A stretch of DNA of 25,829 nt from a virus (Duplodnaviria; Heunggongvirae; Uroviricota; Caudoviricetes): IMG/VR virus record IMGVR_UViG_2802429220_000017, one strand, 5' to 3'. The position numbers were made by a program, and so were the translations under genes. The notes beneath the pieces were generated by a model. The model ran no database searches. It was not told the origin of the DNA and worked only from the letters and a program-made list of their open reading frames with translations. Of this stretch, positions 2,730 through 25,829 are shown in pieces (within the stretch, counting starts at the first letter, position 1; each line of letters begins with the position of its first letter).

Positions 2730-3221
2730 ATGGATCATGAGTTGAAAAACCTGGTGCTGAATATTAATCAACTGGCGGCTTTATCTGGTCTGCACCGCCA
2801 GACTGTCGTGGCAAGACTGAAAAACATTCGTCCCGCTGGTGGACATGACAAACTCAAGCTATACCGGTTGACCGATATTCTGACTGAATTTATGGGGTTA
2901 CCACCGCCGGTTGCTGAGGGCGAAATGGATCCACATGAGCGCAAAGCCTGGTATCAGTCTGAACGTGAGCGTCTTAAGTTCGAACAGGAAACAGCACAAC
3001 TCATTCCGGCCAGTGATGTCAGACGGGAGTTTGCCATCTGGGCAAAAGCGGTCGTGCAGGTGCTGGAGACATTACCGGATATTCTGGAACGCGACTGCGG
3101 TCTGCAGCCTGCCGCTGTGAGCCGTGTTCAGTCCATTATTGATGATCTGCGCGATCAGATAGCCCTGCGGGTGACCGAAGCAGGTGCGGATGATGAGGAG
3201 GAATTACAGCAGGAGGAGTAA
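2730..3221 (+). CDS. Terminase small subunit (DNA-packaging protein) with N-terminal helix-turn-helix
   Basis: HTH-like segment INQLAALSGLHRQTVVARLK and acidic C-terminus. GGAGGAAATATG start. Its stop overlaps the terL start (TAATG). Confidence 0.75.
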   Translation: MDHELKNLVLNINQLAALSGLHRQTVVARLKNIRPAGGHDKLKLYRLTDILTEFMGLPPPVAEGEMDPHERKAWYQSERERLKFEQETAQLIPASDVRREFAIWAKAVVQVLETLPDILERDCGLQPAAVSRVQSIIDDLRDQIALRVTEAGADDEEELQQEE

Positions 3222-5323
3222 TGCTGAATCAGGAAACCGCAAAGGCAGCACGAACCGATTCAGGTTATATCCTTCGCGCACCGAGACGAATGCGGGTTGC
3301 TGATGCCGTTGCTCAGTATATGCAGGTGCCCATGGGGGCCGGGAACTCAGTCCCGTGGGATCCGCTGGTCGCACCGTATGTTATTGAGCCGATGAACTGC
3401 CTGGCCTCGCGTGAATACGACGCAGTGATATTTGTTGGTCCGGCACGAACCGGCAAGACTATCGGCCTGATTGACGGCTGGGTGATTTACAACGTGATTT
3501 GCGATCCTGCGGATATGCTGATCATTCAGATGACGGAGGAAAAAGCCCGCGAACACTCCAAAAAACGACTTGCCAGAACGTTTCGCGTCAGCCCGGAAGT
3601 GGTCAGTCGCCTGAGTCCGAACAAAAATGACAACAACGTTTATGACAGAACATTCCTTGCTGGCAACTACCTGAAAATCGGCTGGCCATCAGTCAATATC
3701 ATGTCCTCATCAGATTATAAATGCGTCGCGCTGACGGATTATGACCGTTTTCCGGAAGATATTGATGGCGAGGGGGATGCCTTCTCTCTTGCCTCAAAAC
3801 GTACCACCACATTTATGTCCAGTGGTATGACGCTGGTGGAGAGTTCCCCCGGCAGGGATGTGAAGGATGTGAAATGGCGACGGACTTCACCGCATGAGGC
3901 TCCGCCAACCACGGGGATACTGTCGCTCTATAACCGTGGCGATCGCCGTCGCTGGTACTGGCCCTGTCCACACTGTGGTGAGTATTTTCAGCCCTGCGGC
4001 GATGTGGTTGCTGGTTTCCGTGATATTGCCGATCCCGTGCTGGCAAGTGAGGCGGCTTATATTCAGTGTCCTTCCTGTTCAGGACGGATTATGCCTGAAC
4101 AAAAACGTGAGCTGAACGGACGTGGGGTCTGGTTGCGGGATGGTGAATCCATCAATGCGGATGGCAGTCGTTATGGTGATCCCCGACGTTCACGTATTGC
4201 GTCATTCTGGATGGAGGGTCCGGCAGCTGCTTACCAGACACTCTCGCAACTCGTTTACAAACTGCTTACTGCAGAACAGGAATACGAGACAACCGGAAGT
4301 GAAGAAACACTCAAGACGGTTATCAATACCGACTGGGGATTACCTTATCTTCCCCGCGCCAGCATGGAGCAACGAAAAAGTGAACTGCTTGAGCAGCGGG
4401 CAGAGCCAGTTCCTTCCCGCAGTGTGCCGGATGGCGTTAATTTCCTTGTGGCGACAGTGGATGTGCAGGCGGGACGTCATCGCCGTTTTGTGGTTCAGGT
4501 AACGGGCTATGGCAGCCGTGGTGAACGCTGGATTATTGATCGTTACAACATCACGCAGTCATTGCGCGGTGACAGCGACGGGGAGAGCCAGCGAATTGAT
4601 CCGGCCAGCTATCCGGAAGACTGGGATGTCCTGCTGACGGATGTTTTTCATAAAAGCTGGCCGCTGGCCTCCGATCCTTCTCAACAAATGCGACTGATGG
4701 CAATGGCGGTGGACTCCGGCGGTGAAGACGGGGTCACTGATAATGCCTATAAATTCTGGCGTCGTTGCCGTCGTGATGGCCTTGGTAAACGTATTTACCT
4801 GTTTAAGGGCGACAGCATCCGGCGCGCAAAACTGATCACCCGTACATTCCCTGATAACACCGGACGAACGGGCCGACGGGCGCAGGCCGCAGGTGATGTG
4901 CCGCTCTGGCTTCTTCAGACGGATGCCCTGAAAGACCGGGTGAATAACGCGTTATGGCGTGACTCGCCAGGTCCCGGCTATGTGCATTTCCCTGACTGGC
5001 TGGGGAGCTGGTTTTACGACGAACTGACGTATGAAGAGCGGAGCAGTGACGGGAAATGGAGTAAGCCGGGTCGCGGTGCCAACGAAGCTTTTGACCTGAT
5101 GGTGTATGCCGAGGCTCTGGTCATTCTGCATGGATACGAAAAGATCCGCTGGCCGGATGCACCGGAGTGGGCGAGCCGGGAAACCTGGCTGGAGTGTGTC
5201 CCGGACAGTACCGAACCGTCACCCTCACCGGAACCGGTATCCACGCCTGTTAAAAAACAAAAACGGAAGAAAACAGTAACTGACGATGTTAACCCCTGGC
5301 TGACTTCCGGAGGATGGTTATGA
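3221..5323 (+). CDS. Terminase large subunit (lambda gpA family)
   Basis: Walker A motif GPARTGKT. Cys-rich segment WPCPHCGEYFQ resembles the recalled lambda gpA ACPHCGE motif. 700 aa, positioned between terS and W/portal. Confidence 0.9.
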   Translation: MLNQETAKAARTDSGYILRAPRRMRVADAVAQYMQVPMGAGNSVPWDPLVAPYVIEPMNCLASREYDAVIFVGPARTGKTIGLIDGWVIYNVICDPADMLIIQMTEEKAREHSKKRLARTFRVSPEVVSRLSPNKNDNNVYDRTFLAGNYLKIGWPSVNIMSSSDYKCVALTDYDRFPEDIDGEGDAFSLASKRTTTFMSSGMTLVESSPGRDVKDVKWRRTSPHEAPPTTGILSLYNRGDRRRWYWPCPHCGEYFQPCGDVVAGFRDIADPVLASEAAYIQCPSCSGRIMPEQKRELNGRGVWLRDGESINADGSRYGDPRRSRIASFWMEGPAAAYQTLSQLVYKLLTAEQEYETTGSEETLKTVINTDWGLPYLPRASMEQRKSELLEQRAEPVPSRSVPDGVNFLVATVDVQAGRHRRFVVQVTGYGSRGERWIIDRYNITQSLRGDSDGESQRIDPASYPEDWDVLLTDVFHKSWPLASDPSQQMRLMAMAVDSGGEDGVTDNAYKFWRRCRRDGLGKRIYLFKGDSIRRAKLITRTFPDNTGRTGRRAQAAGDVPLWLLQTDALKDRVNNALWRDSPGPGYVHFPDWLGSWFYDELTYEERSSDGKWSKPGRGANEAFDLMVYAEALVILHGYEKIRWPDAPEWASRETWLECVPDSTEPSPSPEPVSTPVKKQKRKKTVTDDVNPWLTSGGWL

Positions 5324-5532
5324 ACCAGAATGATATCGAAGCCATGATTCAGCGTTATACGGAAGCTGAAATGGCGGTGCTGGACGGAAAATCCGTCACC
5401 TTTAATGGTCAGCAGATGACCATGGAAAACTTATCTGAGATCCGGCAGGGACGGCAGGAGTGGGAGCGCCGCCTTGCGGCTCTGATTACACGACGACGGG
5501 GGCATCCCGGGTACCGGCTGGCGAGGTTCTGA
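5320..5532 (+). CDS. W: Head-tail joining protein W-like (gpW family)
   Basis: About 70 aa with a basic C-terminus (RRRGHPGY) resembling recalled lambda gpW. ATGA overlap with the terL stop; its stop overlaps the portal ATG. Confidence 0.7.
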   Translation: MNQNDIEAMIQRYTEAEMAVLDGKSVTFNGQQMTMENLSEIRQGRQEWERRLAALITRRRGHPGYRLARF

Positions 5533-7040
5533 TGGCAATTCTTGATGATGTGATTGGCGTTTTTTCACCAGGATGGAAAGCGGCAAGGCTGCGTTCCCGT
5601 GCGGTGATCCAGGCTTATGAGGCCGTAAAAACGACGCGGACACACAAAGCCCGGCGGGAAAACCGAACTGCCGACCAGTTAAGCCAGTACGGGGCCGTGT
5701 CGTTACGTGAGCAGGCCCGTTACCTTGATAACAACCACGATCTGGTTATTGGTGTATTTGACAAGCTGGAAGAACGGGTGGTGGGGAAAAACGGGATTAT
5801 TGTCGAGCCACATCCGGTATTACGCAATGGGGCCATTGCCCGTGATCTGGCAGCGGAGATACGCACCCGATGGAGTGAATGGTCTGTCAGTCCGGAAGTC
5901 ACCGGGCAGTTTACCCGTCCGATGCTGGAACGTCTGATGCTGCGTACCTGGCTGCGCGATGGTGAGGTGTTTGCCCAGATGGTTTCCGGGCGCATAAACA
6001 GCCTGACGCCTTCTGCCGGTGTTCATTTCTGGCTGGAGGCGCTCGAGCCGGACTTTATTCCCATGACCAGTGATGAGAGCAACAGGCTGAATCAGGGCGT
6101 GTTTGTTGATGACTGGGGGCGTCCCGAAAAATATCTGGTGTATAAAAGCCGTCCCGTATCCGGGCGGCAGATGGAAACCAAAGAAGTGGATGCAGAGCGA
6201 ATGCTGCATCTTAAATTTGTTCGCCGTCTGCACCAGATGCGCGGGACGTCTTTGTTGTCCGGTGTGCTGATCCGCCTCAGTGCCCTGAAAGAGTATGAAG
6301 ATTCTGAGCTGACTGCAGCAAGGATCGCCGCTGCTCTGGGGATGTACATCCGCAAAGGCGACGGGCAGAGCTATGAACCGGATGGTAATGGCAGCAAGGA
6401 GAATGAACGCGAGCTTACCATTCAGCCAGGCATTATTTACGACGATCTGAAACCCGGCGAAGAAATCGGAATGGTGAAGTCGGATCGTCCCAATCCTAAC
6501 CTTGAAACTTTTCGTAATGGTCAGTTGCGTGCCGTGGCGGCGGGCAGTCGTCTGAGTTTTTCCAGTACGGCACGCAACTATAACGGCACTTACAGCGCCC
6601 AGCGTCAGGAACTGGTTGAGTCTACTGATGGCTACCTGATCCTGCAGGACTGGTTTATTGGTGCCGTCACCCGCCCGATGTATCGTGCCTGGCTGAAACA
6701 GGCTGTGGCATCCGGTGTTATCAGGCTACCCCGCGATCTTGACCGTTCTTCACTGTATACCGCGGTGTATTCCGGACCAGTGATGCCGTGGATTGACCCT
6801 GTTAAGGAGGCTGAGGCCTGGAAAATCCAGATTCGTGGTGGAGCGGCGACAGAATCAGACTGGGTACGTGCTGGTGGTCGTAATCCGGATGATGTCAAAC
6901 GTCGGCGCAAGGCCGAAATTGATGAAAACCGCAAGCTGGATCTGGTATTTGATACTGATCCGGCCAGTGATAAAGGAGGCAGCAGTGCCGCAACGAAACG
7001 ACAGGAGCCGCAGCACACCGACGACCAGTCCGAAGAATAA
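5532..7040 (+). CDS. Portal protein (lambda-type portal family)
   Basis: About 500-aa protein immediately after W and before the protease/capsid gene, with an acidic C-terminus. Family assigned mainly from position and size; the sequence differs from recalled lambda B. Start taken at the ATG overlapping the W stop rather than the track's upstream start. Confidence 0.8.
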   Translation: MAILDDVIGVFSPGWKAARLRSRAVIQAYEAVKTTRTHKARRENRTADQLSQYGAVSLREQARYLDNNHDLVIGVFDKLEERVVGKNGIIVEPHPVLRNGAIARDLAAEIRTRWSEWSVSPEVTGQFTRPMLERLMLRTWLRDGEVFAQMVSGRINSLTPSAGVHFWLEALEPDFIPMTSDESNRLNQGVFVDDWGRPEKYLVYKSRPVSGRQMETKEVDAERMLHLKFVRRLHQMRGTSLLSGVLIRLSALKEYEDSELTAARIAAALGMYIRKGDGQSYEPDGNGSKENERELTIQPGIIYDDLKPGEEIGMVKSDRPNPNLETFRNGQLRAVAAGSRLSFSSTARNYNGTYSAQRQELVESTDGYLILQDWFIGAVTRPMYRAWLKQAVASGVIRLPRDLDRSSLYTAVYSGPVMPWIDPVKEAEAWKIQIRGGAATESDWVRAGGRNPDDVKRRRKAEIDENRKLDLVFDTDPASDKGGSSAATKRQEPQHTDDQSEE

Positions 7041-7053
7041 TTCCTGGTTCAGG

Positions 7054-9012
7054 ATGCAGGCTGGTCACCAGAGTGACGCGGATATTTATATTTATGACGA
7101 GATTGGTTTCTGGGGTGTTACAGCGAAGCAGTTTATCAGTGATCTGAATGCACTGGGCGATATCACCCACATTAATCTCCATATTAATTCACCGGGTGGC
7201 GATGTCTTTGAAGGCATCGCCATTTTTAATGCGCTGAAAACACATGGTGCGTCCATTACCGTTTATGTCGACGGTGTGGCGGCGTCAATGGCGTCGGTCA
7301 TTGCGATGGTGGGAAACCCGGTCATTATGCCGGAAAACACCTTCATGATGATTCATAAACCATTTGGCTTTACGGGCGGTGATGCGGAAGACATGCGCAC
7401 CTATGCCGACCTGCTCGATAAGGTTGAGGCGGTTCTGTTACCCGCTTATGCACAGAAAACCGGGAAAACCACCGATGAAATTGCTGCCATGCTGGCGGAT
7501 GAGACCTGGATGTCCGGTGCCGAATGTCTGGCACATGGATTTGCTGATCAGGTAACGCCAGCCGTTAAGGCAATGGCATGTATTCAGTCAAAACGTACAG
7601 AGGAATTTAAAAAGATGCCGGAATCCATTCGAAACATGATTACTCCGCCACGCAACAGTGCTCCACGCGTACAGGATAATGAACCTGTAGCCTCCCGGAC
7701 GCCAGTGCAGGCAGCAGCACCCGTGGTGGATGAAAACAGTATCCGTGCGCAGGTACTGGCAGAGCAAAAAGCGCGTGTAAACGGTATTAATGATTTGTTT
7801 GCCATGTTTGGCGGGCGTTATCAGACGCTGCAGGCTCAGTGTCTTGCCGATCCTGAATGTTCGCTGGAGCAGGCCCGCGAAAAGCTGTTGAACGAGATGG
7901 GGCGCGAGTCCACGCCATCCAATAAAAATACCCCGGCTCATATTTATGCCGGTAACGGTAATTTTGTGGGGGACGGGATCCGCCAGGCGCTGATGGCGCG
8001 TGCCGGATTTGAAAAAACCGAACGTGATAATGTCTACAACGGGATGACCCTGCGTGAATATGCTCGTATGTCACTGACTGAACGGGGGATTGGGGTTTCC
8101 AGTTATAACCCGATGCAGATGGTCGGTGCGGCGTTCACACACAGTACGTCTGACTTCGGTAATATTCTGCTGGATGTTGCGAACAAAGCCATTCTGCAGG
8201 GCTGGGAAGATGCCCCTGAAACCTATGAACAGTGGACGCGGAAAGGTCAGTTGTCTGATTTTAAAATTGCCCATCGTGTGGGTATGGGGGGCTTCAGTGC
8301 TCTGCGTCAGGTGCGTGAAGGGGCGGAATATAAATACGTCACCACCGGAGATAAACAGGCCACTATTGCACTGGCGACCTATGGCGAGCTGTTCAGTATC
8401 ACCCGTCAGGCCATTATCAATGATGATCTGAATATGCTGACCGATGTCCCGATGAAACTGGGTCGTGCGGCGAAATCCACTATTGCCGATCTGGTTTATG
8501 CCATTCTGACGTCTAACCCGAAAATATCCACAGATAATGTAAGTCTGTTCGATAAAGCGAAACATGCAAACGTACTGGAGAGCGCTGCAATGGACGTGGC
8601 ATCGCTGGATAAAGCCCGCCAGTTGATGCGTGTTCAGAAAGAGGGGGAGCGTCATCTGAATATTCGTCCTGCGTTCGTACTGGTACCGACGGCGATGGAG
8701 TCTGTTGCTAACCAGGTCATTCGCTCCTCAAGTGTCAAGGGGGCTGACATTAACGCCGGTATTATTAACCCGGTGAAAGATTTTGCGACCGTTATTGCAG
8801 AGCCTCGTCTTGATGATAACAGCCAGACCACTTTCTACCTGGCTGCGTCCAAAGGCTCCGATACGATTGAAGTGGCTTATCTCAACGGTGTGGATACGCC
8901 ATATATTGATCAGATGGAGGGCTTCAGTGTGGATGGCGTGACAACGAAAGTGCGTATTGACGCCGGTGTCGCGCCAGTTGATCACCGCGGTCTGGTGAAA
9001 TGTACGGCGTAA
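7054..9012 (+). CDS. Fused prohead protease (ClpP/S49-like) - scaffold - major capsid protein (HK97-fold), one 652-aa ORF
   Basis: N-terminal protease-like motifs (HINSPGGDVFEGIAIFNALK...VDGVAASMASVIAMVG). A central Ala/Gln-rich linker. A roughly 330-aa C-terminal region typical of major capsid proteins. Start taken at the in-frame ATG at 7054 just after the portal stop; the track ORF extends spuriously upstream. Confidence 0.75.
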   Translation: MQAGHQSDADIYIYDEIGFWGVTAKQFISDLNALGDITHINLHINSPGGDVFEGIAIFNALKTHGASITVYVDGVAASMASVIAMVGNPVIMPENTFMMIHKPFGFTGGDAEDMRTYADLLDKVEAVLLPAYAQKTGKTTDEIAAMLADETWMSGAECLAHGFADQVTPAVKAMACIQSKRTEEFKKMPESIRNMITPPRNSAPRVQDNEPVASRTPVQAAAPVVDENSIRAQVLAEQKARVNGINDLFAMFGGRYQTLQAQCLADPECSLEQAREKLLNEMGRESTPSNKNTPAHIYAGNGNFVGDGIRQALMARAGFEKTERDNVYNGMTLREYARMSLTERGIGVSSYNPMQMVGAAFTHSTSDFGNILLDVANKAILQGWEDAPETYEQWTRKGQLSDFKIAHRVGMGGFSALRQVREGAEYKYVTTGDKQATIALATYGELFSITRQAIINDDLNMLTDVPMKLGRAAKSTIADLVYAILTSNPKISTDNVSLFDKAKHANVLESAAMDVASLDKARQLMRVQKEGERHLNIRPAFVLVPTAMESVANQVIRSSSVKGADINAGIINPVKDFATVIAEPRLDDNSQTTFYLAASKGSDTIEVAYLNGVDTPYIDQMEGFSVDGVTTKVRIDAGVAPVDHRGLVKCTA

Positions 9013-9035: not shown

Positions 9036-9056
9036 GGCCCGTAAGGGCTTTTTTTG
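9036..9056 (+). terminator. Intrinsic terminator after the capsid gene
   Basis: GCCC-gtaa-GGGC hairpin followed by a run of 7 T, about 25 nt after the capsid stop. Confidence 0.55.
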
Positions 9057-9098
9057 TACCTGAAATCAGCCCCTGAACGGGGCTGTGCGGAGACAGTT

Positions 9099-9422
9099 AT
9101 GGCAAAGAATTTTGTAGAAGAAGGAAAAACGGTGGCGATTGTTGCCAGTGCAGCCATCAGCAGCGGAGATCTGGTGCAGGTGGGCGATGTTTTTGCGGTG
9201 ACGCTGACCGATATTCCACAGGGTGAAACAGGCGACGGCCTGACCGAAGGTGTGTTTATGCTGCCTAAGCTGAAAACGGATGACATGAAAACGGGTAAGA
9301 AGGTTTATCTGAAGTCCGGAAAAGTTCAGCTGACTAACAGCGGCTCTGATCCGCTGGTCGGGGTTGTCTGGGCAGATGCTGGAACCAGTGCAGAAGAAGT
9401 GCCGGTAAAACTCAATGTCTGA
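9099..9422 (+). CDS. Small head-associated protein (possible decoration/cementing protein), 107 aa
   Basis: GGAG SD 8 nt upstream of ATG 9099. Gly/Val-rich sequence. Position immediately after the capsid gene. Function assigned from position only. Confidence 0.45.
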   Translation: MAKNFVEEGKTVAIVASAAISSGDLVQVGDVFAVTLTDIPQGETGDGLTEGVFMLPKLKTDDMKTGKKVYLKSGKVQLTNSGSDPLVGVVWADAGTSAEEVPVKLNV

Positions 9423-10678: not shown

Positions 10679-10688
10679 GGAGGTGGCA

Positions 10689-11432
10689 ATGACCACACCA
10701 AATCCACTGGCAAAGACGAAAGGTGCGGGGACGACGTTCTGGATGTATACCGGCAACGGCGACGCATTTGCGAACCCTTTGTCAGACACTGACTGGCTGC
10801 GTCTTGCGATGGTGAAGGATCTGCAACCTGGCGAAATGACCGCTGATGCAGAAGATGATACTTATCTCGATGATGAAGATGCAGACTGGAAAACGACAAC
10901 CCAGGGGCAGAAATCAGTCGGTGATACTTCGGCGACGCTGGCCTGGCGTCCGGGTGACAGCGGGCAGAAAAAACTGGTTCAGTTGTTCGACTCCGGTGAA
11001 GTCTGCGCGTTTCGTATCAAATATCCCAACGGTACTGTTGATGTTTTCCGTGGCTGGCTGAGTTCACTGGGTAAAACCATTGCCTCAAAAGACGTGATGA
11101 CCCGCACTGTGAAAATCAGCGGTGTGGGGCGTCCGTATCTGGCAGAGGAAGGCACTGAAACAGTGAGCGTTACCGGGCTGACGGTGGCACCGGCATCTGC
11201 CAGTGTAAAAGTGGGAGCAACCACCACGCTGACCTTTACAGTAAAACCTGACGGAGCCAGTGACAAAGCGATCAGTGTGCATTCGTCAGATCCACAGACT
11301 GCCACGGTGACCCTGAACGGGCTTGTGGCCACGGTGAAAGGCGTGAAGCAGGGCAGTGTCAGCATTGTGGGCATGACCGCTGACGGGAATTTTGTGGCTG
11401 TGGCTGCGGTGACTGTCAGCGCTGCAGGTTAA
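10689..11432 (+). CDS. V: Major tail protein V with C-terminal Ig-like (Big_2) domain
   Basis: Strong similarity to recalled lambda gpV (KGAGTT.W.Y.G.GD..ANPLSD.DW.RLA.VKDL.PGE.TA...DD.YLDDEDADW..T.QGQKS.GDTS.TLAW.PG). Track start at 10614 rejected in favour of the ATG at 10689 with SD AAGGAGG. Confidence 0.92.
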   Translation: MTTPNPLAKTKGAGTTFWMYTGNGDAFANPLSDTDWLRLAMVKDLQPGEMTADAEDDTYLDDEDADWKTTTQGQKSVGDTSATLAWRPGDSGQKKLVQLFDSGEVCAFRIKYPNGTVDVFRGWLSSLGKTIASKDVMTRTVKISGVGRPYLAEEGTETVSVTGLTVAPASASVKVGATTTLTFTVKPDGASDKAISVHSSDPQTATVTLNGLVATVKGVKQGSVSIVGMTADGNFVAVAAVTVSAAG

Positions 11433-11489: not shown

Positions 11490-11879
11490 ATGATGTTTCT
11501 GAAACAGGGCACGTTTAATTATGAAAAACAGTCCGTGGTGCTCAGTGAGCTGTCCGGGCTGCAGAGAATTGAATATCTGGCGTTTGTTCAGCAGCGAACG
11601 GCAAAGTTTGATGCCGGTGAGGGAGAACTGCCGGAGGCTGAACGACAGATTGCTTTTCTGCGGATGGGGATGGATATCAATGCCTGGCTGGTTTCCCGCT
11701 CACTGTGGAATGCGGATCAGTCTAAGGATGTAGAGACGCTTTGCGCATCCGTTATTACAACATGGTCGTATGATGCCCTGGGTGCGGGGGCGGAGATGGT
11801 TCTGTCGCTGAGCGGTATGGGGGCCATTGATAATGCCGGGGATGATGAGCATGAGGCGCTGACGCCGGAAAAGTCCTGA
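11490..11879 (+). CDS. G: Tail assembly chaperone G
   Basis: Similarity to recalled lambda gpG (MFLK...VTLSELSALQRIE.LA). GGTGGAG SD upstream of the ATG pair at 11490/11493. Track start at 11451 lies inside the V-G terminator and is rejected. Confidence 0.85.
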   Translation: MMFLKQGTFNYEKQSVVLSELSGLQRIEYLAFVQQRTAKFDAGEGELPEAERQIAFLRMGMDINAWLVSRSLWNADQSKDVETLCASVITTWSYDALGAGAEMVLSLSGMGAIDNAGDDEHEALTPEKS

Positions 11880-12217
11880 CGCGGGAAATGCAGTTTGTCA
11901 TGCGGCTTGCCCGGGAGTTCCGGCGGGCAGACTGGCGGCGGATGCTGTCGGAAATGTCGGCCACTGAGCTTGGTGAGTGGGGCGATTATTTCCGGATGCA
12001 GAGCTTCAGTGATGTGTGGATGGATGCGCAGTTTGCCTCGCTGAAGGCATTGATCGTGAGAATGGTGTCCGGCAGCAGTGATGCTGCGGTGGCTGATTTC
12101 AGCCTTTTACCGGAAGAGAACGGGATACCGGAGCGAACGGACGAAGAACTGATGCATCTTGGGGAAGGTATTTCCGGAGGTGTGCGTTATGGACCAGATA
12201 GCCAACCTGGTCATTGA
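11490..12217 (+). CDS. GT: Tail assembly chaperone G-T fusion, made by programmed -1 ribosomal frameshift near the 3' end of G (slip around 11868-11873)
   Basis: The -1 frame opens at 11855 (after TGA 11852-11854) and continues to 12217. It encodes a gpT-like sequence (..FRRADWRRMLSEMSATE..GGVRYGPD). Candidate slip sequence CCG-GAA-AAG lies 4 nt before the G stop. Confidence 0.7.
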
Positions 12218-21783: not shown

Positions 21784-24168
21784 ATGGCAGCAGTAAAAAT
21801 CTCAGGTGTGCTGAAAGATGGTGCGGGAAAACCAATACAGAACTGCACTATTCAACTGAAGGCAAAGCGTAACAGCACCACGGTACTGGTGAACACGGTG
21901 GCCTCTGAAAATCCGGATGAAGCCGGGCGTTACAGCATGGATGTTGAGTATGGCCAGTACAGCGTCATCCTGCTGGTTGAAGGTTTTCCGCCTTCACATG
22001 CCGGGACCATTACCGTCTATGAAGGCTCCAGACCAGGTACGCTGAATGATTTTCTCGGTGCCATGACGGAAGATGATGTCATGCCGGAGGCATTGCGTCG
22101 TTTTGAGGCAATGGTGGAAGAAGCGGCACGCAACGCTGAAGCCGCCTCTCAGAGCGCAGCGGCGGCAAAGAAATCCGAAACTGCAGCGGCATCATCGAAG
22201 AACGCGGCGAAAACCTCAGAAACGAATGCAGCTAACAGCGCACAGGCGGCAGCGGCCTCGCAGACTGCATCGGCAAATTCCGCGACAGCAGCTAAAAAAT
22301 CAGAAACCAACGCGAAAAATAGCGAAACAGCCGCAAAGACGAGCGAAACCAATGCAAAGTCCAGCCAGACGGCAGCGAAAACCAGCGAAACGAATGCCAA
22401 AGCCAGTGAAACTGCGGCGAAAAACAGCCAGGCTGCAGCAGCTGAAAGTGAGAGCGCGGCAGCCGGTTCTGCGACTTCAGCAGCCGGATCAGCAACTGCT
22501 GCGGCTAACAGCCAGAAAGCCGCGAAGACGAGTGAAACTAACGCAAAGTCCAGCCAGACGGCAGCGAAGACCAGCGAAACGAATGCTAAAGCCAGCGAAA
22601 CTGCGGCGAAAAACAGTCAGGATGCAGCAGCCGAAAGCGAGAGTGCCGCAGCTGGTTCTGCAAGTGCGGCGGCTTCTTCTGCCACTGCATCAGCCAACAG
22701 TCAAAAAGCTGCAAAAACCAGTGAAACCAACGCAAAGGCGAGCGAGACTGCGGCTGCTAACTCGGCGAAAGCATCCGCTGCAAGCCAGACGGCTGCAAAA
22801 GCAAGTGAAGACGCAGCCAGGGAGTACGCAAGCCAGGCAGCAGAGCCGTATAAATATGTCTTACAGCCGCTTCCTGATGTGTGGATACCGTTTAACGATT
22901 CACTGGATATGATTACGGGCTTTTCGCCATCATATAAAAAGATTGTTATTGGTGATGATGAAATAACAATGCCTGGCGACAAGATTGTAAAGTTTAAACG
23001 CGCATCAAAAGCAACTTACATTAATAAATCTGGTGTGCTGACAGAGGCTGCAATCGATGAACCTCGCTTTGAAAAGTATGGATTGCTGATTGAAGGGCAG
23101 CGTACAAACCTGTTAATAAACAGCACAAATCCATCAAAGTGGAACAAGTCATCAAATATGATTTTAAATACATCAGGTGTAGATGATTTTGGTTTCCAGT
23201 ACGCAAAATTCACATTAAAACCAGAAATGGTGGGGCAAACCTCAGCCATTTCTATTGTCACAGTATCTGGAAGCAAAGGATATGATGTTACCGGCGATGA
23301 AAAGTATGTAACTATCTCATGCAGGGTACAAAGTGGGACTCCAAATTTAAGATGTCGATTACGATTTGAAGAATATGATGGATCTACCTACAAATTTCTG
23401 GGTGATGCTTACTTAAATATGACAGATTTATCGATTGATAAAACTGGCGGCGCTGCAAGTCGTATTACTGCAAGGGCTGTTAAAAATGAAGCAAGCAAAT
23501 GGATTTTCTTTGAGGCAACAATTAAGGCACTTGATACAGAAAATATGATCGGTGCGATGGTGCAATATGCACCACCAAAAGGGGGAAGCACTGGTGCAGA
23601 TGATTATATTTATGTTGCAACTCCTCAGGTCGAAGGCGGTTCGTGCGCTTCTTCGTTTATTATTACTGAGGCAACGCCAGTCACAAGAGCCAGTGATATG
23701 GTGAATATACCAACAAATAACAATATCGGTACACCACCTTTAACATTTCTAGCTGAAGTTCATACAAACTGGAACGAAACGCCAAATGCAGCACCACGAA
23801 TTTTTGATACCAGTGGTGGGAGCACAACTCCGGGTCAATATATAAGTGTTGCTATTAGTTCAACATTATTTCCTGGTGTTACGATGTACAATAAAAACGG
23901 TAGTACAGTAGCCGCCGTATCGCCAGTATTATTTGAACAAAAATCTGTTCTTGGATTTGTTTTAAATGAATCTGGTAATGTGCATTTCGTTAGCAATGCT
24001 CAGCATGGAACTCCTAAAACTACGGATCATGTCGGTGTTAAATCTGGTTATTTCTTCAGGATTGGTGGGCAGACTAATAGCGGCCTACGTCATCTTTTCG
24101 GTCACATTCGTAATTTTCGTATATGGCATAAAGAATTAACCGATGCGCAAATGGGAGAGGTAATATAA
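21784..24168 (+). CDS. stf: Side tail fibre protein (Stf-like): lambda-type N-terminal anchor, repetitive Ala-rich shaft, divergent AT-rich C-terminal receptor-binding region
   Basis: N-terminus MAAVKISGVLKDGAGKPIQNCTIQLKA..GRYSMDVEYGQYSVIL..GFPPSHAGTITVYE matches the recalled lambda Stf N-terminus. Shaft has tandem KTSETNAKxSxTAAK repeats. C-terminal end (..HLFGHIRNFRIWHKELTDAQM) suggests a lectin/jellyroll-type tip; this is low-confidence motif recognition. Confidence 0.88.
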   Translation: MAAVKISGVLKDGAGKPIQNCTIQLKAKRNSTTVLVNTVASENPDEAGRYSMDVEYGQYSVILLVEGFPPSHAGTITVYEGSRPGTLNDFLGAMTEDDVMPEALRRFEAMVEEAARNAEAASQSAAAAKKSETAAASSKNAAKTSETNAANSAQAAAASQTASANSATAAKKSETNAKNSETAAKTSETNAKSSQTAAKTSETNAKASETAAKNSQAAAAESESAAAGSATSAAGSATAAANSQKAAKTSETNAKSSQTAAKTSETNAKASETAAKNSQDAAAESESAAAGSASAAASSATASANSQKAAKTSETNAKASETAAANSAKASAASQTAAKASEDAAREYASQAAEPYKYVLQPLPDVWIPFNDSLDMITGFSPSYKKIVIGDDEITMPGDKIVKFKRASKATYINKSGVLTEAAIDEPRFEKYGLLIEGQRTNLLINSTNPSKWNKSSNMILNTSGVDDFGFQYAKFTLKPEMVGQTSAISIVTVSGSKGYDVTGDEKYVTISCRVQSGTPNLRCRLRFEEYDGSTYKFLGDAYLNMTDLSIDKTGGAASRITARAVKNEASKWIFFEATIKALDTENMIGAMVQYAPPKGGSTGADDYIYVATPQVEGGSCASSFIITEATPVTRASDMVNIPTNNNIGTPPLTFLAEVHTNWNETPNAAPRIFDTSGGSTTPGQYISVAISSTLFPGVTMYNKNGSTVAAVSPVLFEQKSVLGFVLNESGNVHFVSNAQHGTPKTTDHVGVKSGYFFRIGGQTNSGLRHLFGHIRNFRIWHKELTDAQMGEVI
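22180..22810 (+). repeat. In-frame tandem repeats in the stf shaft; two ~146-bp copies spaced 189 bp apart (about 22331-22476 and 22520-22665) plus degenerate flanking copies
   Basis: Direct comparison of the two blocks (GCCGCAAAGACGAGCGAAACCAATGCAAAGTCCAGCCAGACGGCAGCGAAAACCAGCGAAACGAATGC... versus GCCGCGAAGACGAGTGAAACTAACGCAAAGTCCAGCCAGACGGCAGCGAAGACCAGCGAAACGAATGC...) shows about 90% identity. Confidence 0.8.
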
Positions 24169-24449
24169 TGCGAGATTTAATTATCAAATTCACAGACAAG
24201 GCCGACTTTTCGGCCTTTATGGATAGCATTGGTTATTATGATGACGAGATGATGCAGAACGATGTTCTCATTGATGTAATAGGTGACGTATACAAAGAAA
24301 CAGGCGAACTTACTGAAGATGGCGAGCCGGTATGTGTTAAGGAAGACGGATATTTTGTAAACGTGCGCATCATTAATGATTCGCAAATATCGTCATTATT
24401 CGATGAATACGCGGTTGTAGTTGAACATCAACTTCGTGACTGGATGTGA
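24168..24449 (+). CDS. Hypothetical 93-aa acidic protein, translationally coupled to stf (possible fibre assembly/accessory protein)
   Basis: ATG overlaps the stf stop (TAATG). AT-rich. No family recognised. Confidence 0.55.
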   Translation: MRDLIIKFTDKADFSAFMDSIGYYDDEMMQNDVLIDVIGDVYKETGELTEDGEPVCVKEDGYFVNVRIINDSQISSLFDEYAVVVEHQLRDWM

Positions 24450-24458
24450 GGGAGACAA

Positions 24459-25499
24459 ATGGCTACATCGACCGTAATTCCTGATGACATCAAAACGCTA
24501 AAATCGGATGTTAGTAAATTAAAAACCGATCAAGGAAACTACGCAACAAAATCTTATGTAGACAATAAAACAACATGGAATGGTTATTGCAATGTAATCT
24601 ATGATCAAAAAACATTGCCAACAACTGGTACTATATTCAGCGGTAAGCTGCATTTGTCAAATAAGACTGGTGAAACGGAAAACGCTTATAGTGACATATA
24701 TACCAGAAAAAATATTGATGGTACTAAAGATACAATGACGAGGATCGTCACACATAACGGGACAAAAGGTATCTTTTGGGACTTTAGTGATCTTTACGGC
24801 GGAACATTAATTTTTCCAGGCAGTGATGGTTACCTCAAGATGGGGAACTGTCTCATGTCGTATGGTGTGCGGGGAAGTAACGCGCTTATTAAGTTTGATT
24901 ACACCGACTCCTTACAGATCAAATATGCCAATCATGGGTCGACCATGACATTAAACACACAGGGAACCGCTCACGCTGGCGTAACAACTCGACTATGGGG
25001 CAATTCTAGCCGTCCGGTTGTTTATGAAGTTGGTGTAGATGGTGAGGCTTTTATATTCTTCGGTCAAAAACAAACAGATGGCACATATGGATTTGCTGTT
25101 AATGGTGTATGTCAAGCGACCGCATTTAACCAGACCTCTGACCGAGACCTGAAAGATAATATTCAGGTGATCGATAATGCAACCGACCGCATTCGTAAAA
25201 TGAACGGCTATACATACACGCTTAAAGAAAACGGTATGCCTTACGCTGGTGTTATTGCACAAGAAGCCCTGGAAGCCATCCCCGAAGCCGTAGGGTCTAT
25301 GATGAAATATCCAGACGGTGGGAGTGGATTAGATGGAGAAGAAGGTGAACGGTATTACACTGTAGATTATTCTGGTGTTACTGGCTTGCTTGTTCAGGCA
25401 GCCAGAGAGTCAGACGACAGGATAACAGCACTGGAAGAAGAAAACGCAGAATTAAGACAAAGATTATCTGCAATTGAGGCGGCGCTTGCGTCTAAATAA
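24459..25499 (+). CDS. Tail fibre/spike protein with C-terminal intramolecular chaperone (peptidase S74-like) domain
   Basis: C-terminal region SDRDLKDNIQ...GYTY.LKENG...GVIAQEALEAIPEAV...YTVDYSGVTGLLVQAARESDDRITALEEENAELRQRL matches the conserved pattern of autoproteolytic chaperone domains of phage fibres and endosialidases. GAGGGAGA SD upstream. Confidence 0.75.
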   Translation: MATSTVIPDDIKTLKSDVSKLKTDQGNYATKSYVDNKTTWNGYCNVIYDQKTLPTTGTIFSGKLHLSNKTGETENAYSDIYTRKNIDGTKDTMTRIVTHNGTKGIFWDFSDLYGGTLIFPGSDGYLKMGNCLMSYGVRGSNALIKFDYTDSLQIKYANHGSTMTLNTQGTAHAGVTTRLWGNSSRPVVYEVGVDGEAFIFFGQKQTDGTYGFAVNGVCQATAFNQTSDRDLKDNIQVIDNATDRIRKMNGYTYTLKENGMPYAGVIAQEALEAIPEAVGSMMKYPDGGSGLDGEEGERYYTVDYSGVTGLLVQAARESDDRITALEEENAELRQRLSAIEAALASK

Positions 25500-25505
25500 T
25501 ATTAA

Positions 25506-25527
25506 GGGGCCGAGCGCCCCGTTATAT
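25506..25527 (+). terminator. Weak hairpin after the fibre gene
   Basis: GGGGC-cgagc-GCCCC stem followed by GTTATATT (poor U-tract). Confidence 0.3.
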
Positions 25528-25535
25528 TGGGTAGG

Positions 25536-25829
25536 ATGAAAATGGATATAACACCTTTCCTTCATGCTCTTTGTGCTGTGGCTGCGCAGCTACTGATTGG
25601 TCTTTTTACCGGGAACTGGGCTTACGGAGCGATAGCCGGTTGTACGTTCTTCATTGCGCGTGAACACACCCAGGCAGAATATCGCTGGATTGAAATGTTC
25701 GGGCATGGCAAGCGAATGAATATGCCGTGGTGGGGCGGTTTTGATCCACGTGCATGGGATGTAGCAAGCCTGATGGATTTTGCTGTGCCGGTGATAGCGT
25801 GTCTGCTGGTCTGGCTGGTATTTCGTTGA
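25536..25829 (+). CDS. Predicted multi-pass membrane protein, 3'-truncated by the window end
   Basis: ORF runs off the window. At least three hydrophobic segments (FLHALCAVAAQLLIGLF, AYGAIAGCTFFIA, FAVPVIACLLVWLVF). Start ambiguous (TTG 25527, ATG 25536 or ATG 25542). Confidence 0.5.
   Translation: MKMDITPFLHALCAVAAQLLIGLFTGNWAYGAIAGCTFFIAREHTQAEYRWIEMFGHGKRMNMPWWGGFDPRAWDVASLMDFAVPVIACLLVWLVFR

Follow-up and report, generated by a model that had tools for sequence, protein, structure and literature searches.

A probable head-shell gene of the Gifsy-2/mEp460 type joins a ClpP-like protease, a scaffold-like domain and the major capsid protein, and may be read from two in-frame starts

Introduction

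The question raised by this locus is how a phage can place its head protease, scaffold and shell protein in a single gene. An earlier note on the DNA had described one 652-aa ORF, from 7054 to 9012, in a stretch of 25,829 nucleotides of a Caudoviricetes virus (IMG/VR record IMGVR_UViG_2802429220_000017; this whole stretch is called the window here). Lambda encodes nested protease/scaffold starts (C/Nu3), and Effantin et al. reportedly described a tripartite capsid gene for Salmonella phage Gifsy-2 in 2010. We therefore asked whether the fusion is genuine, where the gene begins, which domains it carries, how it is related to the genes of Gifsy-2 and lambda, and from which starts it may be read.

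Results

The fusion and its start codon

The frame of the ORF is open from 6793 and ends with the stop codon TAA at 9010-9012. The features at its 5' end are the following:
5532..7040, plus strand: portal protein of the lambda gpB family, whose 3' end overlaps the start of the fusion (PF05136, E 6e-82)
6973..6979, plus strand: Shine-Dalgarno (SD) sequence AAGGAGG, 5 nt 5' of the GTG start, read from the sequence
6985..9012, plus strand: whole gene, a fusion of ClpP-like prohead protease, scaffold-like domain and major capsid protein (NF045540, 985 bits; PGAP start; N-terminal alignment; 70% identity with Gifsy-2)
7054..7056, plus strand: ATG chosen as the start in the earlier note and, for mEp460 and cdtI, in GenBank; this Met is probably internal (aa 24)

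The long ORF might be an artefact, with a protease gene and a capsid gene run together by a frameshift introduced in sequencing or assembly, an outcome that the earlier note had itself named as fatal to its reading. Public assemblies do contain single-base errors in this region, the databases include 1159-aa chimeras of portal, protease and capsid, and in the relative P0166 the protease and the capsid protein are separate genes in different frames. However, homologues are present in 2125 of 5426 complete E. coli genomes (about 39%), and the same uninterrupted ORF occurs in 1965 complete E. coli genomes at a coverage of at least 80% and in 25 phage records; at the 50% identity level, more than 100 protein clusters show the fusion as a continuous full-length match of 36-60% identity, and a curated full-length model is matched end to end (positions 2-651 of 652). 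Judged by these comparative data, the artefact is already refuted and keeps practically no probability, and the fusion is genuine. The chimeric proteins of 1159 aa, of which there are more than 10, are caused by scattered one-base deletions; a programmed frameshift from the portal frame into the fusion frame was considered for them and rejected, as the frame switch differs in site among the chimeras. Stand-alone scaffold–capsid genes were also considered as proof of an independent unit, and neither of the two instances is decisive: the apparent stand-alone gene of P0230 is a contig-edge fragment whose frame is open upstream, and the prophage carrying P0166 is oddly arranged and possibly decayed.

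The gene most likely starts at GTG 6985 and not at ATG 7054. GTG 6985 is the closest start codon 5' of ATG 7054, and we favour it because it follows a perfect AAGGAGG, because the PGAP annotation begins there, because AAGGAGG, 5 nt and GTG are kept in mEp213 and CP-1639, and because the N-terminal alignment agrees with it; the homologue of a Pseudomonas phage starts in a similar way, with GGAGG, 5 nt and ATG. The predicted product has 675 aa (73.6 kDa), with PQRNDRSRSTPTTSPKNNSWFR as residues 2-23, and the 5' end of the gene shares 56 nt with the end of the portal gene, whose stop codon lies at 7038-7040. A gene beginning at ATG 7054, with the upstream open frame non-coding, would have the commoner start codon, would lie just 3' of the portal stop and so overlap nothing, and is annotated in two phage records (mEp460 and cdtI). 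However, only an AGG abuts this ATG, with no spacer between them, and the residues N-S-W-F-R immediately upstream are conserved as protein, with the Ser encoded by TCC here and by AGC in Gifsy-2. The Met at 7054 aligns with I, M or L at an internal hydrophobic position of the conserved N-terminal motif W-[YF]-x-[IM]-x-A, at which neither Gifsy-2 nor the Pseudomonas phage homologue has a start codon, and distant homologues open with M-x(1-4)-K-x-W-[YF], 5' of this position. A start at 7054 is thus quite improbable, and while the ORF of the earlier note does measure 652 aa from that ATG, its start was placed 69 nt too far downstream.

Domain architecture and active site

Numbered from GTG 6985, the product is divided as follows:
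7078..7557, plus strand: ClpP-type (S14-like) head maturation protease domain, aa 32-191
7285..7287, plus strand: predicted catalytic Ser101 (TCA) in the motif AASMAS, invariant in 62 homologues of 35-96% identity
7354..7356, plus strand: predicted catalytic His124 (CAT) in the motif MIHKP, invariant in the 62 homologues
7558..7731, plus strand: indel-rich, Ala/Pro-rich linker, aa 192-249 (conservation and gap profile, model, composition)
7732..7929, plus strand: helical middle domain, presumed scaffold, aa 250-315 (model, conservation)
7930..7956, plus strand: short disordered joint, aa 316-324 (pLDDT below 50; variable and indel-bearing against Gifsy-2 and other homologues)
7957..9009, plus strand: HK97-fold major capsid protein domain, aa 325-675, about 38 kDa (Pfam core aa 377-672)

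The claim that protease, linker and HK97-fold capsid protein share one ORF was borne out by Pfam, by NCBIfam and by the fold model. Numbered from ATG 7054, the N-terminal Pfam match is CLP_protease at residues 23-168 (E 4e-36) and the C-terminal one is Phage_capsid_4 at residues 354-649 (E 1e-54), and the match to PHROG 133 spans the full length. NCBIfam NF045540 (ClpP-like prohead protease/major capsid protein fusion) scored 984.8 bits against a cutoff of 475 over profile positions 2-651 of 652, with an N-terminal protease carrying the predicted catalytic Ser and His and a C-terminal HK97-fold capsid domain, NF045542 (ClpP-related head maturation protease) scored 216 bits against a cutoff of 120, and the AlphaFold2 model of the fusion protein has a pLDDT of 83.

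In the PDB alignment, Ser101 falls in the conserved AASM motif of ClpP and His124 in its conserved MIHQP motif, and both residues are predicted to be catalytic; opposite the ClpP Asp, 58 of the 62 homologues have an acidic residue. The ClpP equivalog TIGR00493 scored 59.7 bits against a cutoff of 308.6 and other ClpP models were also far under their cutoffs, and by these profile scores the protease is ClpP-like and not ClpP proper. The protease had been called ClpP/S49-like, of which the ClpP/S14-like part stands and the S49 part does not, the S49/SppA models being far under their cutoffs (SppA 22 bits against 155).

The linker, earlier described as Ala/Gln-rich, is rich in Ala as stated, but its second abundant residue is Pro (13.8% each) and not Gln (5.2%); it is largely disordered in the model, with pLDDT below 50 at residues 221-247. 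The middle domain is moderately conserved, with R264 nearly invariant, and its helices at 250-273, 280-288 and 294-307 are modelled at pLDDT 80-91. The disordered joint behind it is the most likely place for the maturation cleavage. Compared by sequence with solved structures, the capsid domain had Mu gpT-like capsid proteins as its sole and weak match (55 residues, E 6e-4).

Neighbouring genes and relatives

Two features follow the stop codon of the fusion gene:
9036..9059, plus strand: terminator-like hairpin and then a T run, just 3' of the capsid stop (consensus scan)
9099..9422, plus strand: head decoration (cement) protein of 107 aa, the partner of the capsid protein (PF09956 Phage_cement_2, E 1e-19; 60% identical to the Gifsy-2 homologue)

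A rho-independent terminator is annotated at the same place as the hairpin in mEp460 and mEp213. A search of the cement protein against solved structures, by sequence, gave no match, and there are no tRNA genes in the window. Among seven contigs with distant homologues (38-45% identity), the fusion is followed by the cement gene in six, and the seventh ends just past the fusion; a called portal gene (PF05136) precedes it in four, and in the other three the upstream gene is cut by the contig end.

The earlier note had matched the gene to the tripartite capsid gene of Gifsy-2, and the alignment agrees: the product is 70% identical to STM1034.3n over residues 18-674, essentially full length, and the neighbours are the same, with a lambda-family portal upstream and the cement protein downstream as in a Gifsy-2-type head module. 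Much closer are the genes of phages mEp460, cdtI, PhiR47_1, Ayreon and Tritos, with 98.6-99.7% nucleotide identity to the fusion gene, and over 85% of its length the window is 97% identical to PhiR47_1.

In the pairwise comparison with lambda, all of gpA, gpB, Z, U, V, G and T have Pfam matches to their families, those of Z, U, G and T being lambda-type. The tail tube protein V is 55% identical to lambda V, whereas the terminase is 25% identical to gpA and the portal 21% identical to gpB, and no significant similarity was found to lambda gpC, gpE and gpD (BLASTP E 0.017, 1.3 and 1.1); that these lambda proteins are homologues of the protease, the capsid protein and the cement protein was accordingly rejected. 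These identities support the view, already put forward in the earlier note, that the head module differs in lineage from the lambda-like tail module and that the prophage is a mosaic. Because the terminase and the portal still belong to the gpA and gpB families, the head module is, by family membership, a distant relative of that of lambda and not unrelated to it throughout. When the middle domain was compared with lambda Nu3 by hhalign, it beat 20 of 20 shuffles (P 0.015) at an hhalign probability of just 3%, which is only a hint of resemblance.

A candidate internal start at the protease/scaffold junction

Within the linker lie the following:
7600..7604, plus strand: SD-like GAGGA inside the ORF, 10 nt 5' of ATG 7615
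7615..9012, plus strand: candidate nested in-frame gene from Met211, predicted to encode the scaffold-like domain and the capsid protein (465 aa, 50.7 kDa)

All 60 distinct ClpP-type fusions have an in-frame SD sequence with ATG in their linker, part of the junctions being inspected by eye, and so do seven of seven cousins from the sister family NF045541, which fuses an S78 protease to the same capsid type; strong examples among distant homologues are AAGGAGG, 5 nt and ATG, and AGAGGAG, 6 nt and ATG. Among linker ATGs, 39% have an SD-duplex dG of -5.4 or lower, a value reached at 11% of all codon positions in the linker; outside the linker, about 8% of ATGs have a dG of -5 or lower. The first Glu codon at the SD site is GAG in 29 of 29 distinct homologues, versus 42% GAG elsewhere, replacements of this Glu by Gln or Lys retain AG or AGGA, and the EE codons are present solely in homologues that also carry Met211. 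From -30 to +33 around 7615 the mRNA folds at -3.3 kcal/mol versus -14.8 ± 4.4 for the gene, which places it among the least structured 0.6% of the gene, and in 46 of 60 homologues the candidate start lies in the least structured 5% of their own mRNA. In homologues below 50% identity Met211 is not conserved, and the candidate start lies 20-60 residues further on. No promoter was found inside the fusion gene. The conserved SD and ATG, the synonymous constraint and the unstructured mRNA suggest a nested 465-aa scaffold–capsid product, although requirements of the protein could account for the retained E-[ED]-F motif, and A-rich Lys/Glu codons in the linkers for the low mRNA structure. The median per-locus permutation p of the internal-start test was a modest 0.13, and the combined p rests on partly related sequences.

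The gene could instead encode a pure polyprotein made from the 5' start only, in which protease, scaffold and capsid protein are made 1:1:1 and each subunit trims itself; the internal SD and ATG would then be either a relic left by an old fusion of genes or a by-product of conservation of the protein. The ORF is indeed continuous, the name and description of the family speak of a fusion protein, the per-locus statistics are modest, and the SD at 7600 is weak (GAGGA, 10-nt spacer, dG -6.0) next to the perfect one upstream at 6973-6979, which is the only strong in-frame SD sequence of the ORF. The polyprotein is also physically possible, as an internal mass of 415 copies of about 35 kDa would by our estimate take up about 30% of a T=7 procapsid. 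A relic would decay, yet the SD and ATG persist in 60 of 60 ClpP-type and seven of seven S78-type fusions although the linkers cannot be aligned; the synonymous constraint on the SD codon, the restriction of the EE codons to sequences with Met211 and the position of the site in the least structured mRNA of the gene likewise argue against a by-product. We regard the pure polyprotein as a possible but tentative reading, and lean slightly toward a gene read from two in-frame starts, GTG 6985 and ATG 7615. That these are two nested genes, with the 465-aa chain as the main building block and the 675-aa chain as a minor protease carrier, and that the device is common to the two known families of protease–capsid fusions, the ClpP type and the HK97/S78 type, has in our estimation an even chance.

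Discussion

We conclude, with a probability of about 0.85, that this is the head-shell gene of a lambdoid E. coli prophage of the Gifsy-2/mEp460 type, an explanation that takes in the assembly mechanism and the two starts; for the identity of the gene and the general mechanism by themselves, our confidence is very high. The fusion family is already known: it is curated (NF045540), of the Gifsy-2 type and very common, and the finding as the earlier note stated it is correct and ordinary. It adds nothing new to a family reported for Gifsy-2 in 2010 and carried by about 39% of the complete E. coli genomes. In the literature that we searched, we found no experiments that deal with this gene or with close relatives of it in E. 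coli, and a 2025 paper states that head proteins of the type of mEp213, a close E. coli relative, have not been studied.

The following mechanism may be proposed. Initiation at GTG 6985 would give the full 73.6-kDa protease-bearing chain, initiation at ATG 7615 (Met211) would give a 50.7-kDa scaffold–capsid chain without protease, and the ratio of the two starts would set the protease dose. Its covalent link to a capsid subunit would carry the protease into the procapsid. By analogy with HK97, lambda and Gifsy-2, the subunits would assemble together on the portal to form a T=7 procapsid that encloses their protease and scaffold parts, and the middle domain would act as an attached scaffold like the HK97 delta domain. 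The protease would then remove everything N-terminal to the capsid domain, with a cut probably near aa 316-324 that leaves a shell protein of about 38 kDa, its N-terminus predicted to lie between aa 310 and 330; the shell would expand as DNA is packaged, and the 107-aa cement protein would bind as trimers at the three-fold axes. Provided that the internal start is genuine, it accounts both for a much lower number of protease copies than of capsid subunits from one fused gene and for the targeting of the protease into the shell.

Among known systems, the E. coli phages mEp460, cdtI, PhiR47_1, Ayreon and Tritos carry essentially the same gene, with no difference of substance. Their public records disagree on two different start codons, for which the comparative evidence favours the upstream GTG, and on the product, which is variously named "Nu3", "protease C", "major head protein" and "protease/scaffold". 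Gifsy-2 shares the three-part architecture, the overlap with the portal gene end, the downstream cement protein, the lambda-like tail genes, and a Met-Pro at the junction preceded by GAGGAG. It differs in its host, in its annotated length of 696 aa (675 aa here), in the sequence and length of the N-terminal 20 residues and the linker, and in a record that starts at ATG, whereas the gene here most likely starts at GTG after a perfect SD. For Gifsy-2, citing papers describe maturation of the capsid protein by proteolysis and a T=7 shell whose three-fold axes carry trimers (PMC8814770; PMC8538268).

Lambda resembles this locus in the gene order after a gpB-family portal, in a protease gene that overlaps the portal end and starts with GTG, in a protease of the ClpP/SppA structural superfamily, in the strategy of a trimeric decoration protein and possibly in the logic of nested starts as in C/Nu3. 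Unlike here, its capsid protein E is encoded by a separate gene and its protease is S49 and not ClpP-like; C, E and D lack significant similarity, and the similarity of Nu3 is a weak hint. The proposed two-start scheme would be the C/Nu3 logic of lambda widened to take in the capsid protein. The predicted internal product, with an N-terminal part of 114 aa and a shell domain of 351 aa, is laid out like gp5 of HK97, but in HK97 the protease is a separate gene (gp4) of the S78 family, and the shell is held by covalent chainmail with no cement protein. In HSV-1 UL26/UL26.5 and in gp17/gp17.5 of the archaeal virus HFTV1, for which the nested protease/scaffold start was shown by Ribo-seq, the assembly protein made from an in-frame internal start lacks the protease and is abundant, and the full-length protease is rarer (bioRxiv 10.64898/2026.09.13.751334). 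The capsid protein lies outside the ORF in both systems, whereas it lies inside the gene here, where the internal start is a prediction; if that prediction is true, the nested-gene rule of lambda C/Nu3, HSV-1 UL26/UL26.5 and HFTV1 gp17/gp17.5 extends to genes that include the capsid protein.

Domain architecture and gene neighbourhood of the fusion gene

One ORF of the window carries a protease, a linker, a helical domain and an HK97-fold domain, with the predicted catalytic Ser and His conserved and the neighbouring genes fixed. The window, a lambdoid E. coli prophage, shows 97% identity to phage PhiR47_1 across 85% of its length and about 96-97% identity to mEp460, Ayreon, cdtI and Tritos.

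Head-to-tail gene order in the window (fusion gene listed from its probable start)
3221-5323: large terminase, gpA family
Between large terminase and portal: small ORF in the W position
5532-7040: portal, lambda family
6985-9012 (+): fusion gene, 675 aa, 73.6 kDa, overlapping the last 56 nt of the portal gene
9036-9059: terminator-like hairpin, GC-rich, then seven T, directly after the capsid stop codon
9099-9422: Phage_cement_2 protein, 107 aa
9415-9690: PF13856 "Gifsy-2" family protein, 91 aa
After the PF13856 gene: lambda-type tail genes in the order Z, U, V, G, T, H, M, L, K, I, J

The frame of the fusion gene is open from 6793 to the stop codon TAA 9010-9012, and translation bore out the earlier note's claim of a single 652-aa ORF from ATG 7054. 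Pfam profile searches located both a Clp protease domain (PF00574, E 4e-36, residues 23-168) and a capsid domain (PF25209, E 1e-54, residues 354-649) in this same ORF, counting residues from ATG 7054, together with a match to the Mu-like gpT model (E 4e-8), while a PHROG 133 match spans the whole length. The protein scored 984.8 bits (cutoff 475) against NF045540, the NCBIfam family of ClpP-like prohead protease/major capsid fusions, and 215.8 bits (cutoff 120) against NF045542 ("head maturation protease, ClpP-related"). An assembly frameshift as the source of the fusion, which would place protease and capsid in separate ORFs, was excluded: 1965 complete E. coli genomes contain the same unbroken gene, as do 25 phage records (matches covering at least 80% of the query), and a scan of 1.84 billion cluster representatives returned more than 100 clusters with a single continuous full-length match at 36-60% identity. 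The observation of a fusion is confirmed and its earlier interpretation supported; the feature itself is already known, curated and very common, and the finding is ordinary.

An AlphaFold2 model built on 62 homologues (mean pLDDT 83) has three confident parts, the protease (about aa 20-220), the helical middle domain (250-315) and the capsid domain (327-675), residues now being counted along the 675-aa protein. Across an alignment of 62 full-length fusions (35-96% identity), Ser101 (AASMAS) and His124 (MIHKP) are invariant, and Glu173, which aligns with the catalytic Asp of ClpP, is acidic in 58. The protease and capsid domains are gap-free and well conserved, residues 196-255 are insertion-rich and poorly conserved, and residues 256-375 are moderately conserved with near-invariant R264, L302, P311, R339 and G341. 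The linker had been described as Ala/Gln-rich, of which the Ala part stands and the Gln part does not; it is Ala/Pro-rich (13.8% each), with 5.2% Gln. Judging from its position, its helicity and the analogy with the HK97 delta domain, the middle domain (7732-7929) would be the scaffold. It gave a weak BLASTP match to residues 107-157 of lambda Nu3 (E 0.017), and in hhalign it beat 20 of 20 shuffles (P 0.015), yet with a probability of just 3%; this weak, repeatable likeness is a hint that the scaffold parts share an origin.

Several unusual relatives were also considered. More than ten database proteins of 1159 aa hold portal, protease and capsid in one chain, and a programmed frameshift was rejected for them because the frame switch is placed differently in each and stems from scattered one-base deletions, which are sequencing errors or prophage decay (P0006, P0007, P0009, P0011 and P0012; window 6784-7038, the portal/fusion overlap). 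Apparently "stand-alone" scaffold-capsid proteins were contig-edge fragments or came from a possibly decayed prophage. At one locus, L096 (51% identical), a ClpP-like protease (1857-2462) and the scaffold-capsid protein P0166 (2501-3832) are encoded by two genes that lie in different frames with 38 nt between them; the surrounding prophage region is oddly arranged, and the split reflects either decay or a genuinely unfused state.

Relationship to Gifsy-2 and lambda

The proposed match to the tripartite capsid gene of Gifsy-2 held on alignment, with 70% identity to STM1034.3n over residues 18-674; the cement proteins of the window and Gifsy-2 share 60% identity, and the cdtI homologue is cited within the Gifsy-2 record itself. 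Among seven distant homologue contigs (38-45% identity) the order portal, fusion, cement recurs, with the cement gene downstream in six and a called portal upstream in four; in the remaining contigs the end of the contig truncates the neighbouring gene. The comparisons with lambda likewise support the earlier view that the head differs in lineage from the lambda-like tail. The tail tube protein V is 55% identical to that of lambda (E 7e-98), versus 25% for the large terminase and 21% for the portal, and pairwise comparison found no significant similarity to the lambda protease (E 0.017), capsid (E 1.3) or decoration protein (E 1.1). Thus, the tail is near lambda and the head and packaging block comes from a distant lineage, although terminase and portal still fall within the gpA and gpB families of lambda.

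The mEp460 and mEp213 records annotate a rho-independent terminator at the place of the 9036-9059 hairpin, which may reduce expression of the genes downstream of the abundant capsid protein. No promoter-like site was found within the fusion gene and no tRNA gene in the window. The 91-aa PF13856 protein occupies the position of lambda FII (head closure) and is probably a head-tail connector; its database names, "ATP-binding sugar transporter from pro-phage" and "DNA breaking-rejoining protein", are misleading. Like lambda V, the V homologue (10686-11432) has a Big_2 Ig-like domain at its C-terminal end (residues 162-241), and the chaperone genes G (PF06894) and T (PF06223; together 11493-12217) follow the layout usual for lambda, implying a programmed G-T frameshift product. 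Towards the right end (about 23000-25829) GC content drops to about 0.40, from 0.52-0.60 over the structural genes, suggesting a different origin for this part, such as side tail fibre tips or cargo genes.

Start codon of the fusion gene

The true start is probably GTG 6985, 69 nt upstream of ATG 7054. At the upstream start the window reads gataAAGGAGGcagcaGTG, a perfect Shine-Dalgarno (SD) sequence at 5 nt spacing, versus AGG alone, directly abutting, at ATG 7054; no other in-frame ATG, GTG or TTG was found between them. Both mEp213 (amino-acid identity 74%) and CP-1639 (nucleotide identity 77%) also have AAGGAGG, 5 nt, GTG; at the matching place, the homologue of a Pseudomonas phage (56%) shows GGAGG, 5 nt, ATG. 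Gifsy-2 and the Pseudomonas phage both conserve, as protein, the residues N-S-W-F-R just before the Met of ATG 7054; for the Ser the window uses TCC and Gifsy-2 AGC, and neither of these two homologues has a start codon at the position matching 7054. In the 62-sequence alignment, the majority of distant homologues open with M-x(1-4)-K-x-W-[YF]-x-[IM]-x-A, and the Met of ATG 7054 is an internal hydrophobic residue of W-[YF]-x-[IM]-x-A. Because the SD, the N-terminal conservation and the motif alignment favour GTG 6985, we take 6985-9012, encoding 675 aa, as the likely gene, a refinement worth recording. In lambda, C overlaps B in a similar manner and likewise starts at GTG.

RefSeq/PGAP and the mEp213 record start at the GTG, and the mEp460 and cdtI GenBank records take the downstream ATG, so that public annotation is inconsistent (JQ182728, AB285204, JQ182733, NZ_CM168023). 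Product names in these records also conflict: Nu3, protease C, major head protein and protease/scaffold protein.

A candidate internal start in the linker

In the linker of many distant homologues the translation reads [KQ]-E-E-x-x-M, which at the DNA level is an in-frame SD plus ATG: AAGGAGG, 5 nt, ATG in L008, AGAGGAG, 6 nt, ATG in L010, and GAGGA or AGGAG 7-10 nt from the ATG in L007, L009 and L011-L013. Since these seven loci were picked by eye, an unselected set of 80 IMG/VR loci found using the alignment was added. It contains 60 full-length ClpP-type fusions whose linkers are distinct (34-100% identity), and in every one of them an SD-like core precedes an ATG of the linker. An SD of dG <= -5 precedes 64 of 160 linker ATGs versus 99 of the 1224 ATGs in other parts of these genes, and within linkers dG <= -5.4 was reached at 39% of ATG positions versus 11% of all codon positions. 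The per-locus permutation p for SD plus linker ATG was modest (median 0.13); Fisher-combined over these mutually related loci, it was 2e-10 overall and 2e-5 for the 20 loci below 50% identity. In homologues of at least 50% identity the internal site is the window's Met211 (ATG 7615, acaGAGGAAtttaaaaagATG), and among more distant ones it is shifted 20-60 residues beyond that position.

Codon usage and mRNA folding were examined as well. The SD-core Glu codon is GAG in 29 of 29 distinct sequences, versus 42% of Glu codons elsewhere in these genes; its replacements, Gln (CAG) or Lys (AAG), both preserve AGGA, neighbouring third positions vary freely, and the E-E/D pair is missing from homologues without Met211. 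From -30 to +33 around 7615 the mRNA folds at -3.3 kcal/mol versus -14.8 ± 4.4 for the gene, making ATG 7615 the least structured of all in-frame ATGs and placing it within the top 0.6% of codon positions; structure is low at the 5% level in 46 of 60 homologues. The sister family NF045541 carries an HK97-type Peptidase_S78 protease on the same capsid type, and all seven IMG/VR loci taken from it (L075, L077, L078, L088, L089, L091 and L093) have a strong SD plus ATG right after the protease domain, e.g., AGGAGG, 5 nt, ATG. One scaffold-capsid module is found with either an S78 or a ClpP-type protease; therefore, this capsid type has been joined to two different, unrelated proteases.

Proposed head assembly and comparison with known systems

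PMC8814770 includes Gifsy-2 in a listing as T=7, and a statement in PMC8538268 places a trimeric protein on each of its three-fold axes. By analogy with Gifsy-2, HK97 and lambda, the products of the fusion gene would assemble together on the portal, forming a T=7 procapsid whose interior contains the N-terminal parts, the protease would strip everything N-terminal to the shell domain, with a predicted cut near aa 316-324 leaving about 38 kDa, and the shell would expand during DNA packaging, with cement-protein trimers docking at the three-fold axes. We propose that two translation starts would determine how much protease is made relative to capsid protein and keep the protease attached to a subunit. 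As a second refinement, the conserved putative ribosome-binding site inside the gene (7600-7617) offers a cheap, testable hypothesis for protease-dose control in fused head genes.

The simplest reading of the internal SD plus ATG is a nested in-frame gene, whose predicted short product would run from Met211 to Ala675 (465 aa, 50.7 kDa). Lambda (C/Nu3) and HSV-1 are known to use nested protease/scaffold starts. For the archaeal virus HFTV1, a nested protease/scaffold start was recently demonstrated by ribosome profiling (bioRxiv 10.64898/2026.09.13.751334). With a 114-aa N-terminal part and a 351-aa shell domain, the predicted short product would share the layout of HK97 gp5.
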